From Desulfobacterales bacterium (GTDB lineage Bacteria; Desulfobacterota; Desulfobacteria; Desulfobacterales; UBA5852): DNA of 64,000 bases. The stretch covers positions 2,368,001 to 2,432,000 of the forward strand of contig CAXXVS010000003.1 of assembly GCA_963674755.2 (NCBI GenBank). The letters run 5' to 3'. The position numbers are program-made. Positions 18,001 through 24,000 of the stretch are shown in pieces (within the stretch, counting starts at the first letter, position 1; the number at the start of each line of letters is the position of its first letter).

Positions 18001-21000
18001 CTACGAAACACAGATCTATGGCCAGTTCCTTGCCGTCCTTGGCGCGATAGACAGAACCCTTGGACAGAATCCAGCCCGCCCCGTCAAGTAGTCCGGCGGC
18101 TCCTGCCGGGTCATAGGCGAAAGGCGGAAGATCCAGATTGCAGTAGGGCATCGAAGGGGCGAAAATGGCATCGGCTTTTTCCTCCACGCCCAAGAAAATG
18201 TGATCCACCAACGCCTTTTTATCCACTGCGTGCAGGATCGCTTTGCGCACGGCGATTTCATTCGTGGGAAAACGGTTGGTGTTGAGGGCCAGGGCGCGAG
18301 TGGCCAGCGGCTGGGAGACAGCCGTGACAATGTCCTTCATCTCCCGGTAGCGTTCGAAGGTGTCCAGACCGATCTGTCCCGCACCGTGCCCGCCCGATCC
18401 GTAGATAAGATCGATTTCCCCTGTGTCGAAAGCCACTGCCCTGGCATTGGCATCCGGGATGACCTTGACGACGAGATGCTTCATCTTGGGTTTCTCACCC
18501 CAATAACGGTCATTGCGTTCGAAGACGTCGTACTCGCCCTTCACCATCTCGGTGACCTTCCAGGGGCCGGTGCCAATGGGAGCCTTGATGCCCTTGCTCG
18601 TGTCACCGTCGTCAGGGAAGGCCGCGGGGGCTAGGAAGCGGACCGGACGAACCAACGCGAGTTCTTGCAGAATGGGGTAATACGCATCCTTCAATGTCAA
18701 TTTCACGGTGTATTCATCGATGATGCGCACGGCCTCCCCCCCTGCAGCATCAACCGCATGAAGCTGATTGACAAGCTCCAACCAGTGGTGCCTTTCGTGG
18801 TTCTTGAGAACCGCGTCGAAATTCAACTTTACGGCCTGGGCGTTAAACGGCGTTCCGTCGGAAAAGGTTACACCTTTGCGAAGGTTGAAATTGTACTCCC
18901 GGCCATCCTCGCTGACGGTCCAGGACGCGGCAAGCCAGGGTGCCACTGAGCCGTCGGCCTGGTATTTTACCAGTGGTTCGTAAACCAAGGCTTGGGCGAA
19001 CATCTGGCTCGGGGAATAGAGATGGGGGTTAAGGGGTCCTACATTGCTCGACCAGGAGTAGACGAGAACCTGATCACTCTCAGGCGGCGCCGCAAGCGTA
19101 TTGGAGAGAGACAGAGAAACCGAGCAAAAAACCAGAACAAGGCCCAATATAACAAACCGGATATGCTTCATCTTACACCCCTCTTTTGTTAGGACGCATT
19201 CGTGCAAGAAGGATTCGCTTCGCGGGCAAAAAAAAAACCACGAAGGTCATCCCCATTTGGGTTTGGTGGACCTTCGTGGCCTTGGCTGCTATAAATTTTA
19301 CCCGTTGCTAATCGGTAGCAAAGGCAGGTGATCGACAAATCTTGGTTTTAAAACTGAGTGCAAAACCACCGGCTTCAGCCGTATTTAGATCGCTGTTATT
19401 AAACGAAGACCTCATTCGATGTCAATCTTTTTATAGGGATGCCATCCAAGCTGAAGGCCCCCTTATGATGAGGACAATCGCGCCCTCTTTGGGAGGCTAT
19501 CTGATGTTGTCCCCTGTGCGGAAGCGCCGCTCTTACAGCCGGCACGTCATCAAGGACCTTCCAGATCCCGGTGGATTTGCAGGAGCCAGTCCGGGAAGCG
19601 TGGATTCTCCACACCGTGATAGGACTCGACATAGGGCTTGATATCGATCAGGGGACTGCCGTCCACCGCCTCCAGCCCTTTTACTTTGAGGATATGCCCT
19701 TCCCGCGCCAGCAGGGGCACGGTGGACACCAGGACCGGGTTGGGCCGGGCCGGACTGCGGGTGGCGAAGATGCCCTGGAGGGGCAGGTCCTTGCGTCCCA
19801 TGGGATGCACCTGGCGCAGATTCCTGCGTTCAGGGTCGATCAGGTGGGGCCAATAGAGCACCAGGATGTGGGAAAAGGCTTCGATGCCGTCCAGCAATTC
19901 GCGCCAGGGCTCGAAGATCACCAGCTCGCTGGCCGTGTTCTTGACCTGTTGGTGGTGTTCGCGAATCTTGTCCAGGCGTTCCCGAAGTTCGATATCCGAT
20001 TCACCGGCCTGCAACATGGGCGCTTTGATGGGACTGCGCACCTTCCCCACGGGGGTGAGCTGCAGGGGCAATGGCTTGTCTGACATATCGTTCATTGGCC
20101 CTGTGCCCCCCTCTCTTTACGCTTCCCGGTCAGCAGCGCATCGGAAATTCCCTCAAGCGCTGCGGATGCCGGTGCGACACTTACCGATCTCCCCTCGAGA
20201 CCGGCCGCCTGGATGGTCTCCTGATACCCGACCGCGCCGATTACCCGGACATCATGGTCGCACAGGCGCTCCACGACCTTTTGCTTCTGCGTGTCCGAAG
20301 TGATTTTGTTGAGGACCGCCCCGGCAAAGGCCGCGCCCGAAGATTGCGTCAGATCCATCACTTTCTCCGCCAGCGTGATGGATTCCAGGGACGGCTCGAC
20401 CACACAGATGACCCCGTCCACACTGGTTTCAACCCCCCGGCCGAAATGCTCGAGACCGGCCTCCATGTCCACGAGCATGACTTCCCCGGCCGCCAGTTCG
20501 AATTTTTTCAGAAATTCGCGCGTCACGGTGCCCATGGGACAGGCGCAGCCCTCCAGGGCCTGATGGATTTTGCCCGTCGAAATCAGTTTCAATCCATCCC
20601 GGACGGCCATGTAGTCGGACGGCATGGAGCGGCTGGTGATTTTTTCGGTTTCCCAGATAGACATGGACGGTTCATCATCCCCCTTGGAGAAGCGGGCGAT
20701 CATTTTCTTCTGGACCGCCTTCTTGCCGCCAATGAAATCCATCAGGGGCTGAGGAGATTCTTCAAAACCGAGCATCCAGGCCAGACTGGTATTCGATTCG
20801 TCGGAATCCAGGACGATGACCTCCCGGCCCCGGTCCTTGAACATTTGTGCAAGCATGCACACAACCGTGCTTTTCCCGCTGCCGCCTTTGCCGCAAACGC
20901 ATAGTTTCATCGTTTCTCCCTTGTTGAAGTTAAATCGTGTCGATAACGCCGCTTGTCAGTAGCATTTCAATCGGTTTCGAAGATGATTTTGTGATCTCCC

Positions 21001-24000
21001 AGATTCAATGCTTTGATGCGGCCCCTGAGCATTTTCTGGTCGCCGAAGATGCCGACTATCCGCCAATGTTCGTCATCCTGCGGTTCCAGAATATCCACGG
21101 ACGCCATGATGAGTTCTTCCCGCCCATCGTTGATCCGGTATACGTCAGCTTCACACATTTTCGATGGCCTCCCTTGTCATTTGGATAGATGTTTCCATCA
21201 TTTGTTGGAAGGATTCGTTTGCCAAACCAAGGATAAAGACGTTTTCCTGGGCCAGCGGAAGAAGGATTTTCCTGGCGGTACTGGCCATGACGGCTTCCGC
21301 CATTTGGGGGGCGATCTCTCCCATCATGGCATTGGCCCAGGTGATGCCAACAGGGCCGATGATGCAATCCGCCTGGGAAACGGTTCGACAGATCGCCTCC
21401 TCACCGGACACTACCTTGTTGGCGCCCGCCTTATGCATCTGGGCCGTGGCAATGGCATTGGCACCCAAACCGATAAGTTCGATGCTTTCGCCGTAAATGG
21501 CTTTCAAACTCTTGATCATGGCCGCACCGATACCGCCGCCCTGGCCGTCGATCACGCAAACACATTTCAAGCGTCCGTCCTCCCTCCATTCTCAACTCAG
21601 AAAATAAAAAAGCCACGCGCTTCTGGGATTCCTATAGGGAACCATCAGCCTTCGTGGCTTAATCTGCCTTTTGCGGCAGTAAATTATACGTCAACTTTAT
21701 CGACTTGGTTTCCTTTTGTCAATCCGTCTCCTATCGAGGTTTTCCGTCTGACGGCAACACTTCGTCCCATCGAATGGGATGCATTCCGGTTTTGTTAATG
21801 AGATATCCAAAAAATTGGAAGATTTCGGTTGAACATTGTCCGATAGTGCGTTATCTATCGATCCTAACAGGCGAGGACGAATCTGCCCGCTTTTTTCTGA
21901 CTTTTTCCAGAAGTAAAAACCTCCGTCGGATCGAAATCCGAGATTTTCCGCTTTTTCTAGTTTTACCGCCTGGTATCCATTTTGTTACCATTGGTTTGAT
22001 CATAAACCGGCCACGAAGGCTTTGGCGCTTGCCCACAGACGGACAGGCGGTCGAGGCCTTTTTTTATGTGGAGTTTCATCTGTTATCTCTTTTTCATAGG
22101 GGAACGTCTGAAAGGAGCAAGATCATGCAGAGAAAAATGATTGTTTTGATGATTGCGGTATTGGCTGTGGGCATGGCGGTGCAGGTGACCTGGGCCCACG
22201 AATTCATCGTCCAACCTGTTCAACTGGCCGCTTCGGTTGGTCACAAGCTTCCATTGAGTGTCGTTTCGGCGCATGTTTTCGTGGTCAGCGAAGAAATGGA
22301 ACCCATAGAGCAGGTCGATTTGGCCCTGGTTAAAGGCGACACCCGGGAGAAGGTTTCCCTGGTGCCCAATGAAATGCTGCTGACCCTTGACGGCGCTGTC
22401 GAATTGAAACAGCAAGGTACCTATGTCCTGGCCGGACATCGCAAGGGCATCCTTTGGACTCATACCACCAAAGGCTGGCAACAGGCCGGGAAAAAGGGGC
22501 TGCAGGGCGTCATCTCGAGCGGGAAGTACGAAAAATTTTGTAAAACCCTGGTCGTCTCGGGTCAAGCCGACGATGGCTACAAGAAGGTGGTGGGAGACCG
22601 CCTGGAAATCGTGCCGATCGATGACCCCCAAAAGGTGGCGGTGGGTCAAGATCTTAACGTTCAGATTTTATTCGATGGCAAGCCGATGCCAACCGAGGTC
22701 TATGCCACCTACGACGGTTTTACCACGGTACCGAACACCTATGCCTATTTCACGGAGACCGATGAAAACGGCCGAGCCCGTATCCGGCTTACCCATGACG
22801 GTACTTGGATGGTGCGTGTCCAACACAAAGTGAACGAAGCGACGGATGACTATGACCAGTATATATTGCGGGCCGTGCTTGTTTTCGGTGTGCGCTGATG
22901 ACGTTTGACATCCGATTCGCCTGTCTGTCGGCCGTGTTCGGGATTCTTCTTGGCGGATCATCCGCTTGTTGGGGGCACGGTACCGGCTACCGCCTTTTGG
23001 AAAACACGGCCGATGTGGCCATGGAGTTCCGCTATTCTTCGGGGGAACCCATGGCCTATGCCGAGGTGTTAATCTGGCACCCTGAGGACACGAAAATAGA
23101 ATATCAAAACGGACGTACGGACAGGCTCGGGCGATTCGCTTTTTTGCCGAATGCTCCGGGTAACTGGAAAGTAGTCGTCAAGGATGGCATGGGACATCAG
23201 GTCACCGCTAACTGCCCGGTCGATACGGCTTCGCCGGCGGGACCTTCACCGGAATCCCGCGCAACGGGGGCGCCGCCGCCGAGAGTCCCGGGTGCACTTT
23301 TAGGACTCAGCCTATTGGCGAATATGACTTTCTGTATCGCGATCGTGCGCCGTTTCCGGAAACTACGCACCCGCAAAGCGTAATTCCCCATACCGCCGGT
23401 TGACATGAAAACCGGCGGTATCTCTATCTTCAAGACAATCAGGGAAGAGAGTGACCATTGCCCGGGAAGTGGCGCAATGATGTCATGCCTCGGTCAATTT
23501 TTCTGCCATAGGACGCAAAACCGTTTCCAAAGTTTGCGAGATGCGTTTGGCCTCGGCCTCCGATCCGGCAAATCCGATCCAGCAGTCCCAAATCTCGTCT
23601 TCGTCTTGCCAGCATTGACCGTTGGGCTTTAAGCGATCCGGGTGCCCGCAGTTTTCCAGCACGCGGTAGAACAGCATGATCTTCCGGACGAGATCGTCTT
23701 CGGTATCCTCGCCGCCCTTTTCTTGGTAGATGGGCAGCATGCCGTCTTCCAAACTCGGTAGCACCGTTCGCCTGAAATCGAACAGCAGGCGGGGCAGAGC
23801 CGCGTTGACCCAGTCGCTGTTGCGGCTTGCCAGATCCCGGCAATAGCTGCTTTGGCATTCCGCGTACACCCGATCGAGCTTGGCGGCCAGTGCTTCCTGT
23901 TCGGTGCCGCTGTTTTCAAGATTCCCCAGGAAGCCGTCGCGCCATTGGCGAAAATCGGCGATGATGGCTTTGGCGGCCGCCGCATCTTTCACTTGGCGGA

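Follow-up and report, generated by a model that had tools for sequence, protein, structure and literature searches.

DUF3842, with CooT as its nickel sensor, may regulate nickel uptake by protein-dependent attenuation, a reading that we place at about even odds (roughly 0.5). DUF3842 is the candidate RNA-binding or effector subunit and CooT the candidate nickel sensor. All four nickel-related operons in the window (the whole 64,000-nucleotide stretch of DNA analysed) start with a CC-ACGAA-GG hairpin and an intrinsic terminator. The DUF3842 operon lies on one strand with the nickel importer, in the order leader - DUF3842 - cooT - cooC-like - trmO-like - leader - nikABCDE:

21694-21722, minus strand: promoter-like site upstream of the DUF3842 leader; TTGACA, 17 nt spacer, TAAAGT
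21151-21570, minus strand: DUF3842 gene, the subject of this analysis; 139 aa; PF12953, E = 3.5e-46, 157 bits against a cut-off of 28.5
20967-21158, minus strand: CooT gene; 63 aa; PF10133, 9.4e-20, 71 bits against a cut-off of 27
20092-20910, minus strand: CooC-like MinD-type ATPase; CbiA and ParA families; GKGGSGKS P-loop, C-A-C motif
19550-20095, minus strand: TrmO/TsaA-like gene; 181 aa; TrmO_N 2.2e-26; TIGR00104, 115.9 bits against a cut-off of 93.25
14048-19207, minus strand: nikABCDE nickel ABC importer; TIGR02294 (nikA) 6e-208, permease and ABC_tran domains; nikA 17540-19207, nikB 16590-17531, nikC 15901-16593, nikD about 14865-15965, nikE 14048-14968

The DUF3842 and CooT genes overlap by 8 nt (21151-21158), CooT has a Met-Cys start, and the TrmO-like gene is the final one ahead of the nikA leader. 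The nikA reading frame opens at 19207; an ATG lies at about 19171, some 380 nt from the TrmO-like gene, and domain search identifies nikD and nikE as ABC ATPases. The positions and identities of the genes agree with the initial annotation. The best solved relative of the CooC-like protein is C. hydrogenoformans CooC1 (3KJE, 4.9e-16), whose C-x-C motif aligns with the C-A-C motif, and the TrmO-like protein matches 2NV4 (8.4e-20). The promoter-like site agrees at 10 of 12 consensus positions and is a consensus match only. Whole-genome search returned three DUF3842 and four CooT genes. A second pair, likewise overlapping by 8 nt, lies at C1:782109-782691, and the remaining DUF3842 gene and the remaining two CooT genes have no partner, as had been noted before. 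The pair on contig C1 stands alone as a bicistron and has a leader of its own.

The leader RNA is an element that the initial annotation had missed. Four copies were located in the window:

21600-21662, minus strand: leader 1 (DUF3842 operon); MFE -23.1 kcal/mol, z -3.4; 30 nt before the DUF3842 start
19222-19284, minus strand: leader 2 (between the TrmO-like gene and nikA); hairpin-1 motif and terminator; -26.5 kcal/mol, z -4.0
22006-22070, plus strand: leader 3 (before the DUF4198/nikK-like gene); hairpin-1 motif; -26.2 kcal/mol, z -2.5
30232-30298, minus strand: leader 4 (before the [FeFe]-hydrogenase/TonB-receptor operon); hairpin-1 motif and terminator; -30.4 kcal/mol, z -4.2

Hairpin 1 carries a C[A-Y-G-A-A]G pentaloop within the consensus R-CC-ACGAA-GG-Y. 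Its 5′ half doubles as the 5′ arm of a far stronger intrinsic terminator, except in leader 3, where the 5′ arm of the terminator begins within the 3′ half of hairpin 1. In the window, hairpin 1 alone folds at -4 to -7 kcal/mol and the terminators at -23 to -30 kcal/mol (z -2.5 to -4.2). In leader 1, hairpin 1 is GCC-ACGAA-GGC (-5.2 kcal/mol alone) and the terminator ends in CGUGGC and a U-run. A stricter leader pattern gave no match in 100 shuffles of the window. The flanks of hairpin 1 covary across 45 distinct sites, which supports the hairpin: positions -1/+1 pair in 42 of them (shuffles 37.9 ± 1.5), -2/+2 in 29 (19.1 ± 2.5) and -3/+3 in 24 (16.9 ± 2.4). No Rfam family matched the leader at E up to 1. 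In many leaders a second hairpin lies further in, its loop being of the YGAA type, as in GUAUC-AUGAA-GAUAC.

The genome contains six intergenic copies of CCACGAAGG, each followed by a terminator. They precede both DUF3842-cooT operons, nikABCDE, two nikK (DUF4198) operons, one of them nikK-cbiM-nikL-cbiQ-cbiK-ABC, and the hydAB-TM1266-TonB receptor-FmdE operon. The genes behind the leaders are those for nickel uptake, for an [FeFe] hydrogenase, which is nickel-free, and for DUF3842 and CooT themselves. The genes behind leaders 3 and 4 in the window are as follows:

22140-22898, plus strand: DUF4198 (NikK-like periplasmic protein); DUF4198, 4.3e-41
22898-23383, plus strand: NikL-like gene; NF058648 NikL family 1.9e-11, below the family cut-off
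24331-29582, minus strand: operon behind leader 4, from hydA to the FmdE-domain gene
28272-29582, minus strand: hydA; Fe_hyd_lg_C 1.8e-88
27913-28275, minus strand: hydB; Fe_hyd_SSU 4.5e-21
27470-27811, minus strand: TM1266-like gene; 1e-18
25313-27448, minus strand: TonB-dependent receptor; TonB receptor 4e-43, Plug 3.6e-28
24331-25296, minus strand: FmdE-domain gene; FmdE 1e-26

In other genomes, the first reading frame after 23 leader-type sites encodes a TonB receptor (8), DUF4198 (3), CbiM (2), DUF3842 (2), or TonB, a NikA-like binding protein, FmdE or CooT (1 each), with other or no genes at the remaining 4.

The leader was surveyed in 613 sampled genomes (251 of the window's phylum, 111 of its order and 251 of a second phylum), over which it tracks DUF3842 and not CooT alone. 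In the window's phylum, the 100 genomes with DUF3842 gave 272 pattern matches versus 89 for the reversed control, while the counts were 37 versus 34 in the 56 genomes with CooT only and 59 versus 65 in the 95 genomes with neither family. The five DUF3842-less genomes of this phylum with most matches lack the leader architecture. A stricter pattern, with 9 control matches in total, was used within the order. It matched in 67 of 85 genomes with DUF3842 versus 6 of 26 without and, at a completeness of at least 90%, in 56 of 69 versus 2 of 19. For the second phylum, where the listed matches were judged by eye, leader-type sites occur in 24 of 122 DUF3842-bearing genomes versus none of 129 others, and 5 of these 24 have no CooT. 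A true leader also occurs in one DUF3842-less assembly (G541; 95% complete, 9% contaminated), on a contig of 4.9 kb. Of the DUF3842-bearing genomes, 23 of 100 in the phylum lack the strict motif, as do 18 of 85 from the order and 98 of 122 from the second phylum. This means that the motif is variable or that DUF3842 also serves other functions.

A NikR_C search found no NikR in this genome, and DUF3842 and NikR come close to mutual exclusion. Among the 251 genomes of the phylum sample, 12 have both, 88 DUF3842 only, 106 NikR only and 45 neither; since related genomes are not independent, kinship makes this and the other two-by-two tables overstate the case. The first 30 families listed divide into 17 with DUF3842 only, 8 with NikR only and 5 with neither, with one weak NikR match beside DUF3842.

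DUF3842 had been described as the fixed partner of CooT. This holds in the window's lineage but not everywhere, the frequency of pairing being lineage-dependent. CooT lies directly downstream of at least 92 of 110 DUF3842 matches in the window's phylum, in at least 88 of 100 genomes; these are lower bounds, as 68 CooT matches fall outside those listed. In the second, Bacillota-type phylum only 66 of 142 DUF3842 genes, spread over 59 of 122 genomes, have a CooT neighbour (61 downstream, 5 upstream). Over both samples, at least 147 of 179 genomes with both families have the adjacent pair, of the same order as the 79% reported earlier for 2066 of 2630 genomes; the earlier count for Desulfobacterales was at least 603 of 811. 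Could the pairing be conserved gene order without common function? The 76 second-phylum DUF3842 genes without a nearby CooT would agree with this, as would the 56 genomes of the window's phylum with CooT and no DUF3842. However, start and stop codons overlap or are separated by very short gaps (most commonly 26 nt between the two matches in the window's phylum), the order is kept in at least two phyla, and both genes fall within the nickel-leader regulon. Natural fusions also argue against it: among 39 longer representatives scanned (150 listed), two are DUF3842-CooT fusions (P0162, 202 aa; P0202, 207 aa), which matches the earlier account, and they are rare (90% clusters of 2 members and 1 member). 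We therefore consider a purely positional association very improbable.

The AlphaFold2 model of DUF3842 (pLDDT 96.2, pTM 0.90) has a Rossmann-like α/β fold; strand 1 leads into a DGQGGGIG loop, and invariant acidic residues lie where strands end. Alignment of 60 sequences shows D8 and E85 to be invariant, as had been claimed, within a conserved set of D8, E57, E85, N38 and glycine-rich loops, and contains no conserved Cys or His. Judged from the alignment, these residues look like a small-ligand pocket. Structure searches returned generic Rossmann-like matches only, again as first described (Foldseek best E 4.2e-4, TM 0.49), and the VIA structure list was flat (top Z 9.8). Some relatives are annotated at source as NAD(P)-dependent dehydrogenases. 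Fold, loop and acidic residues would suit a small protein that binds a nucleotide or cofactor and acts as enzyme or sensor in nickel/cobalt cofactor metabolism, with CooT as metal donor or modulator and an indirect link to the leader, for instance through a signal read by another factor. The dehydrogenase labels, a weak Pfam match to DpaA_N (E 0.005, below the cut-off) and the occurrence of DUF3842 near cob, lar, hyp and ECF-transporter genes point the same way. Yet the structure searches, with flat match lists, found no specific structural relative; with 139 aa in one domain and no enzyme domain as partner, the protein is small for an enzyme; and the overlap with CooT and the exclusion of NikR do not follow from such an activity alone. 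We regard this possibility as improbable.

The CooT proteins adjoining DUF3842 start with Met-Cys in 70 of 70 cases; in 60 aligned, M1, C2, E3, Y7 and G39 are invariant and H56 is present in at least 90%. Like R. rubrum CooT (5N76) and C. hydrogenoformans CooT (6FAN), the window's CooT belongs to PF10133, with a Met-Cys start and a C-terminal His. A profile of the partnered CooTs matches 6FAN at 1.5e-24 and leaves 5N76 unmatched up to E = 0.01, which places the partnered subfamily near the C. hydrogenoformans type and at a distance from R. rubrum CooT. To our knowledge, a part in CODH maturation has genetic support for R. rubrum CooT alone. Unlike the known CO-dehydrogenase accessory, the window's CooT lies outside any CODH operon and is translationally coupled to DUF3842, and the role proposed for it is sensing rather than delivery. 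The earlier statement that the pair is not tied to CO dehydrogenase stands for this genome: the nearest of six Prismane/CooS-family genes in the genome is 126 kb from any CooT.

The initial annotation had suggested a part for DUF3842 in CooT-dependent nickel delivery. DUF3842 would then dock on CooT and hand nickel to enzymes or cofactor-building machines, with the CooC-like ATPase as a co-worker; the leader, read by another factor, would merely co-regulate these helpers with the importers. The part that stands is that DUF3842 is a conserved, nickel-tied partner of a Cys2-bearing CooT, and CooT is known to bind nickel and to need Cys2 for this (PMC6006190). Delivery is also favoured by the conserved Cys and His of CooT, the CxC motif kept in the ATPase of the same operon and the rare fusions. 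Moreover, 20 loci with unpaired DUF3842 were fetched from the second phylum (19 scanned); DUF3842 directly follows hypF-hypC-hypD-hypE in 4, cob genes adjoin it in 5 and larB/larC in 1, ECF-transporter genes also being among the neighbours, so that a metal-insertion helper fits as well. Against this, a nickel enzyme does not adjoin the pair in most related loci, and the distance to CooS-family genes is large. DUF3842 has no conserved Cys or His with which to carry nickel, and a chaperone role leaves unexplained both the confinement of the leader to DUF3842-bearing genomes and the avoidance of NikR. The pair is followed by an ispH-ubiA gene in 20 of 56 related loci and preceded by a NYN/YacP gene in 16 of 63, and none of these loci adjoins a nickel enzyme. 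These housekeeping contexts, like the stand-alone second pair, suit a global factor and not a single-enzyme chaperone. Because of these contexts, the leader before nickel operons, its link to DUF3842 and the exclusion of NikR, delivery to enzymes is judged less likely than regulation but is still a serious competitor.

Attenuation by a small regulator has precedents. In the Bacillus pyr/PyrR and hut/HutP systems, a small non-canonical RNA-binding protein acts on a short hairpin motif competing with an intrinsic terminator; the operon opens with the regulator gene, and further attenuators lie between later genes. The window has a comparable layout, leader - DUF3842 - ... - leader - nikA, and just as PyrR has a nucleotide-enzyme fold, DUF3842 has a Rossmann-like one. 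However, the protein families are unrelated, the RNA motif is another, the signal is presumably a metal sensed by a second subunit, and RNA binding by DUF3842 is putative. ANTAR antitermination (EutV, NasR, AmiR) uses two small hairpins with conserved loop positions that adjoin or overlap a terminator. The second inner hairpin of many leaders is similar, whereas DUF3842 and CooT have no ANTAR domain and no two-component or ligand domain, and the leader hairpins carry pentaloops that have GAA at their core. NikR, a ribbon-helix-helix nickel repressor of complementary distribution, has the same kinds of targets, nik importers and TonB receptors, but acts on DNA operators, whereas the control proposed here would act on RNA through unrelated proteins. 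NiCo (czcD) and other metal riboswitches also place metal-homeostasis genes under leader RNA. Here, in contrast, Rfam gives no match, leader occurrence depends on a protein gene, and the conserved hairpin has 5 loop bases and 4-5 pairs, too few to form a metal pocket.

Several points tell against DUF3842 as the regulator, among them some given above: the pocket-like residues with no conserved Cys or His, the DUF3842-bearing genomes that lack the strict motif, the leader of G541, and the unpaired DUF3842 genes near hyp, cob and lar genes. In addition, the leader ahead of its operon would be expected of a co-regulated target no less than of an autoregulated regulator. Both DUF3842 (9 Lys/Arg versus 13 Asp/Glu) and CooT are acidic as counted from their sequences, the former has a generic Rossmann-like fold, and neither has a recognised RNA-binding domain. 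The CooC-like ATPase within the operon also counts against it.

We found nothing in print on a DUF3842-CooT system. Under the proposed regulation, DUF3842, usually with CooT, would be the trans-acting factor of nickel-responsive transcription attenuation. At low nickel the protein would hold hairpin 1 and block the terminator, so that transcription could run on to the uptake genes. With ample nickel, CooT would take up Ni(II) via Cys2 and His, the RNA would be released and transcription would stop. DUF3842 would be the obligatory part, probably contacting the RNA, and CooT the usual yet dispensable nickel-sensing part. If this is true, the system replaces NikR in many anaerobes.

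The DUF3842 gene of the window is the first of four closely packed genes on the minus strand:

21151-21570, minus strand: DUF3842 gene, 139 aa; PF12953, 157.3 bits against a cut-off of 28.5, residues 4-130 of 139
20967-21158, minus strand: CooT gene, 63 aa, Met-Cys start; PF10133, 71.1 bits against 27
20092-20910, minus strand: MinD/CooC-like ATPase; best solved relative 3KJE, CooC1 of C. hydrogenoformans
19550-20095, minus strand: TrmO-like gene; TrmO_N (Pfam), TIGR00104, 115.9 bits against a cut-off of 93.25

DUF3842 and CooT overlap by 8 nt, the ATPase and TrmO-like genes by 4 nt. 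The coordinates agree with the initial annotation, which placed DUF3842 directly upstream of an overlapping CooT, followed by a CooC-like protein with a CxC motif and a TrmO-like protein; as far as they could be checked, its factual claims were all right. The genome (three contigs, 97% complete) carries three DUF3842 and four CooT genes. The second overlapping pair reported on contig C1 is present as a stand-alone bicistron, with the same 8-nt overlap and unrelated genes around it. The one DUF3842 without CooT has a HIT gene on one side and an FMN-reductase gene on the other. Two CooT genes are without DUF3842, one downstream of parA-parB and upstream of an ispH-ubiA fusion, the other adjoining moaA and MinD/NifB-like genes. 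A conserved housekeeping layout, seen in 20 of 56 related loci and common in Desulfobacterales, runs parB or NYN/YacP, DUF3842, CooT, ispH-ubiA fusion. Here the corresponding slot (locus L010, C2:2446-2448 kb) holds CooT alone, overlapping parB, and DUF3842 has therefore been lost from it.

The Met-Cys start of CooT is shared by the window protein and by 70 of 70 CooT proteins adjacent to DUF3842, and a profile of these partnered proteins matches the solved CooT 6FAN at 1.5e-24. The CooC-like ATPase has the deviant Walker A P-loop GKGGSGKS and matches 3KJE over its full length (4.9e-16), its C-A-C being aligned to the metal-binding C-x-C of CooC1. The presence of this ATPase in the operon favours the function first proposed, in which DUF3842 takes part in nickel delivery with CooT. 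However, the CooC-like gene lies beside CooT without cooS, and the nearest of six Prismane/CooS-family genes in the genome is 126 kb from a CooT. Unlike a CooT of CODH maturation, the CooT of the window is outside any CODH operon, as the initial annotation had held. In the TrmO-like protein the Pfam match covers the N-terminal domain only.

Residues D8 and E85 of DUF3842, described earlier as invariant, are so in 60 aligned sequences, and G9, G11, G12, G15, N38 and E57 are conserved in at least 90% of them. The model of the protein is confident (pLDDT 96.2). It has no specific structural relative, PDB matches being generic; a profile search of the PDB gave nothing below E 0.39, and a protein atlas search gave no usable match. 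The conserved residues are arranged along the crevice where Rossmann-like folds usually bind a ligand, and none is Cys or His. This argues against a regulator that acts on RNA, as does the finding that DUF3842 and CooT are both acidic and have no known RNA-binding domain. Given the crevice, DUF3842 might be a ligand-binding enzyme or sensor, a reading that we consider improbable. A predicted complex of DUF3842 and CooT scored 0.06 against a mark of 0.32, with controls absent, and speaks neither for nor against interaction.

CooT is presented in a part of PMC6006190 as a 7-kDa dimer with one bound Ni; binding needs Cys2, and the role of the protein is given as unclear. Conservation of Cys2 and the R. 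rubrum structure 5N76 appear in a portion of a recent preprint (bioRxiv 10.64898/2026.03.10.710785). A section of PMC11247825 notes homologues of CooC, CooT and CooJ in Desulfobulbales and does not mention DUF3842 there. A literature search, supplements aside, returned nothing on DUF3842 function or on a nickel leader of the kind described below. The JGI source label of the DUF3842-CooT fusion proteins is 'predicted RNA-binding protein', an automatic name.

DUF3842 had been called the fixed partner of CooT. This holds within the window's phylum, Desulfobacterota. In 251 genomes drawn evenly from it, DUF3842 occurs in 100 and CooT in at least 154, including at least 98 of the 100 with DUF3842; these CooT counts are lower bounds, 68 weaker matches being unlisted. 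CooT lies just downstream on the same strand of at least 92 of 110 DUF3842 matches, most commonly 26 nt past the matched region. The claim does not carry over to a second, Bacillota-type phylum, sampled as 251 genomes around that of L087, a Peptococcaceae MAG. Here DUF3842 is present in 122 genomes, and CooT is over the cut-off in 83, of which 81 have DUF3842. Of the 142 DUF3842 matches in this sample, only 66 adjoin CooT, which lies downstream in 61 cases and upstream in 5. Among the 80 loci most like the DUF3842 of the window, a set biased towards paired forms, CooT is downstream in 70. The reported fusions are borne out by two of the 150 listed representatives, P0162 and P0202, and are rare, the two clusters holding 2 sequences and 1 sequence. 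Two further loci, L073 and L077, had CooT in a long stop-to-stop frame and were dropped as in-frame fusions, the two genes being in different frames. The partnership is genuine and ancient, in many cases with translational coupling, and it is very unlikely to be mere synteny. Either gene can nevertheless occur without the other.

From the second phylum, 20 DUF3842 genes without CooT beside them were retrieved, and 19 of these were scanned (L157, with the same layout as L149, was left out). Four directly follow hypF-hypC-hypD-hypE, five adjoin cobalamin genes, one adjoins larB/larC in an operon with a CCAUGAAGG leader, and two adjoin FmdE, one of these with TrmO_N and a FecCD transporter. An ECF-transporter S-component (PF12822 type) follows in three (L151, L158 and L162). 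L151 has a CCACGAAGG-plus-terminator element between DUF3842 and the S-component, at 4432-4485, with panC and panD next. From these three loci, a regulon may extend past the classical Nik/Cbi importers. The hyp, cob, larB/larC, FmdE and ECF contexts place DUF3842 in nickel or cobalt biology, and fit a metal-handling helper, as the delivery reading would have it, too.

Locus L153 has the order FecCD, ABC, TrmO_N, FmdE/zinc-ribbon adjoining DUF3842. Proteins with TrmO_N and FmdE domains recur by metal transporters and DUF3842 (L153, L154, and 19550-20095 and 24331-25296 of the window). Both these 'tRNA methyltransferase-like' proteins and the 'FmdE' ones may play a part in metal uptake. A 535-aa metagenomic protein, P0004, joins the N-terminal half of DUF3842 to the alpha subunit of urease, a nickel enzyme. 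This singleton comes from a 2.9-kb contig and is probably an assembly chimera.

The sequence (G)CCACGAAGG(C/U), followed 40-55 nt on by (C)GUGG(C) and a U-run, occurs at four places in the window:

21600-21662, minus strand: leader before DUF3842
19222-19284, minus strand: leader before nikA, after the TrmO-like gene
22006-22070, plus strand: leader before a DUF4198 gene
30232-30298, minus strand: leader before the hydrogenase/TonB operon

Each folds as a long terminator hairpin of -23 to -30 kcal/mol (z -2.5 to -4.2) whose 5′ arm begins with the leader motif. The alternative fold, a small CC-ACGAA-GG hairpin (hairpin 1) with flanking pairs, reaches only -4 to -7 kcal/mol. Across 45 distinct sites from many genomes, the flanks of hairpin 1 covary as extra pairs around an invariant core. 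Positions -1/+1 are paired in 42 of 45 sites (shuffles 37.9 +/- 1.5), -2/+2 in 29 of 45 (19.1 +/- 2.5) and -3/+3 in 24 of 45 (16.9 +/- 2.4). In many leaders there is an additional inner hairpin whose loop is similar, for example GUAUC-AUGAA-GAUAC. The predicted folds and the covarying flanks describe an antiterminator and an intrinsic terminator that are mutually exclusive. An antiterminator stabilised by a protein is expected to look like this, the hairpin being weak and the terminator that it excludes strong.

The covariance models of Rfam 15 gave no match at E up to 1 in window positions 15000-32000. A simple terminator scan did not flag the terminators of the leaders, because its loop limit was 3-8 nt and their stems carry inner hairpins. 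Plain CCACGAAGG was rejected as a leader marker, being too common alone (155 copies against about 74 expected, mostly inside genes). The genome also contains a repeat element of about 90 nt made of tandem CACGAAG units and inverted copies (CTTCGTG). It forms a long hairpin with a T-run behind it, and its first bases are often CCACGAAGG. Its sites include C1:250439, C1:265457, C1:328469, C2:521320, C3:1403938 and C3:2704672, none within the range of the present finding. It is found in two other sampled genomes, G590 and G604, and gave rise to a false leader match in the latter. Although the repeat and the leader motif have a core in common, the repeat is a distinct, MITE- or REP-like element.

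The genome has six such leaders, the two outside the window lying on C1 before the second DUF3842-cooT pair and before a nikK-cbiM-nikL-cbiQ-cbiK-ABC operon. Four of the six thus precede genes for nickel or metal uptake, if the hydrogenase operon with its TonB receptor is included, and two precede DUF3842 operons. The window order is leader, DUF3842, cooT, cooC-like, trmO-like, leader, nikABCDE. The importer lies on the strand of the DUF3842 operon, about 340-380 nt beyond the TrmO-like gene; nikA matches TIGR02294 at 6e-208, and nikD and nikE encode ABC ATPases. A DUF4198 (NikK-like) gene and a NikL-like gene lie on the opposite strand, divergent from DUF3842. The succession leader, DUF3842, CooT, leader, uptake genes recurs in L015, L017, L057 and L106. 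Other genomes of the phylum contributed 30 loci with 23 leader-type sites, and at 16 of these sites the first ORF downstream is a metal-uptake gene (8 TonB receptors, 1 TonB, 3 DUF4198, 2 CbiM, 1 NikA-like, 1 FmdE). DUF3842 or CooT comes first after three sites, and other genes or none after four. The same short RNA motif therefore stands before a functionally coherent set of operons.

Homologues of CbiK-type chelatases also adjoin nickel importers:

12696-13607 of the window, plus strand: CbiK-type chelatase homologue, just beyond nikE
8964-9758 of L012 (a locus on C1): CbiK-type chelatase homologue inside the nikKMLQ-O operon

They may be periplasmic metal-binding components rather than cobalt chelatases.

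One leader of the window heads an operon of another kind:

24331-30298, minus strand: [FeFe]-hydrogenase/TonB operon with its leader; hydA, hydB, TM1266-like protein, TonB-dependent receptor, FmdE-domain protein

Here the large and small subunits of a periplasmic [FeFe] hydrogenase (hydA/hydB) are encoded behind a nickel-type leader. Hydrogenase switching is known in sulfate reducers, and on this basis the arrangement suggests a nickel-sparing switch of hydrogenase type and fits expression of the operon at low nickel as a nickel-sparing measure. The TM1266-like protein belongs to PF21699 ('iron-only hydrogenase system regulator, putative') and may be a candidate metal sensor worth testing.

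The distribution of the leader was compared with that of the two protein families. In the phylum sample, the pattern CCACGAAGG-N5-50-T6 was counted against the same pattern read backwards. It gave 272 matches against 89 for the control in the 100 genomes with DUF3842, 37 against 34 in 56 genomes with CooT and without DUF3842, and 59 against 65 in 95 genomes with neither. The five DUF3842-less genomes with most pattern matches contain no GUGG-plus-U-run architecture. In 111 genomes of the window's order, a stricter pattern with 9 control matches in total was found in 67 of 85 genomes with DUF3842 and in 6 of 26 without. Of these six, four are less than 80% complete, one match is a repeat element, and one genome, G541 (95% complete, 9% contaminated), has a true leader, located where a 4.9-kb contig ends; it is a doubtful single exception. 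In the second phylum, leader-type matches, judged by eye, occur among the matches listed (9 are unlisted) in 24 of 122 genomes with DUF3842 and in none of 129 without, and 5 of the 24 have no CooT. The strict motif is absent from 23 of 100 DUF3842 genomes in the phylum, 18 of 85 in the order and 98 of 122 in the second phylum, and these absences count against a regulator acting on the leader. G541 excepted, the leader motif is thus co-distributed with the DUF3842 gene, and from the genome counts in two phyla it goes with DUF3842 and not with CooT alone. An NYN/YacP gene lies upstream of the pair in 16 of 63 related loci. Since the six leaders of this genome occur in the absence of any NYN_YacP match, that protein is not required for the leader and was rejected as its obligatory RNA reader.

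For sulfate reducers, syntrophs and many clostridia-like anaerobes in which NikR is missing, we know of no regulator of nickel homeostasis. Unlike a NikR regulon, the operons described here belong to a 97%-complete genome in which NikR_C has no match. The 251-genome phylum sample contains 12 genomes with DUF3842 as well as NikR, 88 with DUF3842 only, 106 with NikR only and 45 with neither. Since relatedness makes these genomes non-independent, the nominal p-value is given no weight. The 30 families listed first comprise 17 with DUF3842 only, 8 with NikR only and 5 with neither; one of the DUF3842 families has a single weak NikR match. Such family-level complementarity looks like one regulator replacing another. 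A chaperone supplies no reason for it, and we hold nickel delivery to be the less probable function of DUF3842, an unlikely though serious alternative.

We give a probability of about one half to the reading that DUF3842, helped by CooT as a nickel sensor, is a candidate regulator acting on hairpin 1 and the terminator. At low nickel, DUF3842 with CooT would stabilise hairpin 1, the 5′ half of which doubles as the 5′ arm of the terminator; at high nickel the terminator would be allowed to form. Both RNA binding and the direction of the switch are what we infer, and CooT would be the sensing part. Attenuation of the PyrR, HutP, TRAP or ANTAR kind is similar in its mutually exclusive folds, its coherent set of operons and its co-distributed regulator, with RNA binding predicted for DUF3842. 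The leader before the DUF3842 operon itself fits autoregulation and mere co-regulation equally.

More tentatively, DUF3842-CooT could be the first bacterial antiterminator that both senses a metal and binds RNA. The two proteins together would form a nickel sensor recognising the GAA-pentaloop hairpin of nascent leaders, and would take the place of NikR across Desulfobacterota, Nitrospirota and many Bacillota. Most proteins of the 'CooT nickel chaperone' family would then be sensors rather than chaperones, and under nickel shortage the regulon would also shift cells to the nickel-free [FeFe] hydrogenase. DUF3842 (139 aa), CooT (63 aa) and the RNA (about 60 nt) are small enough to be tested directly in vitro. 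If delivery is the right reading, DUF3842 would still add to nickel trafficking a new component open to testing. Should DUF3842-CooT read the leader, a family of more than 7,000 sequence clusters would gain a function and the role of most CooT proteins would shift from chaperone to sensor. The nickel regulon, with importers, TonB receptors and the [FeFe] hydrogenase as nickel-sparing enzyme, would become predictable from sequence alone, and the system would represent a metal-responsive protein-RNA switch of a new kind.
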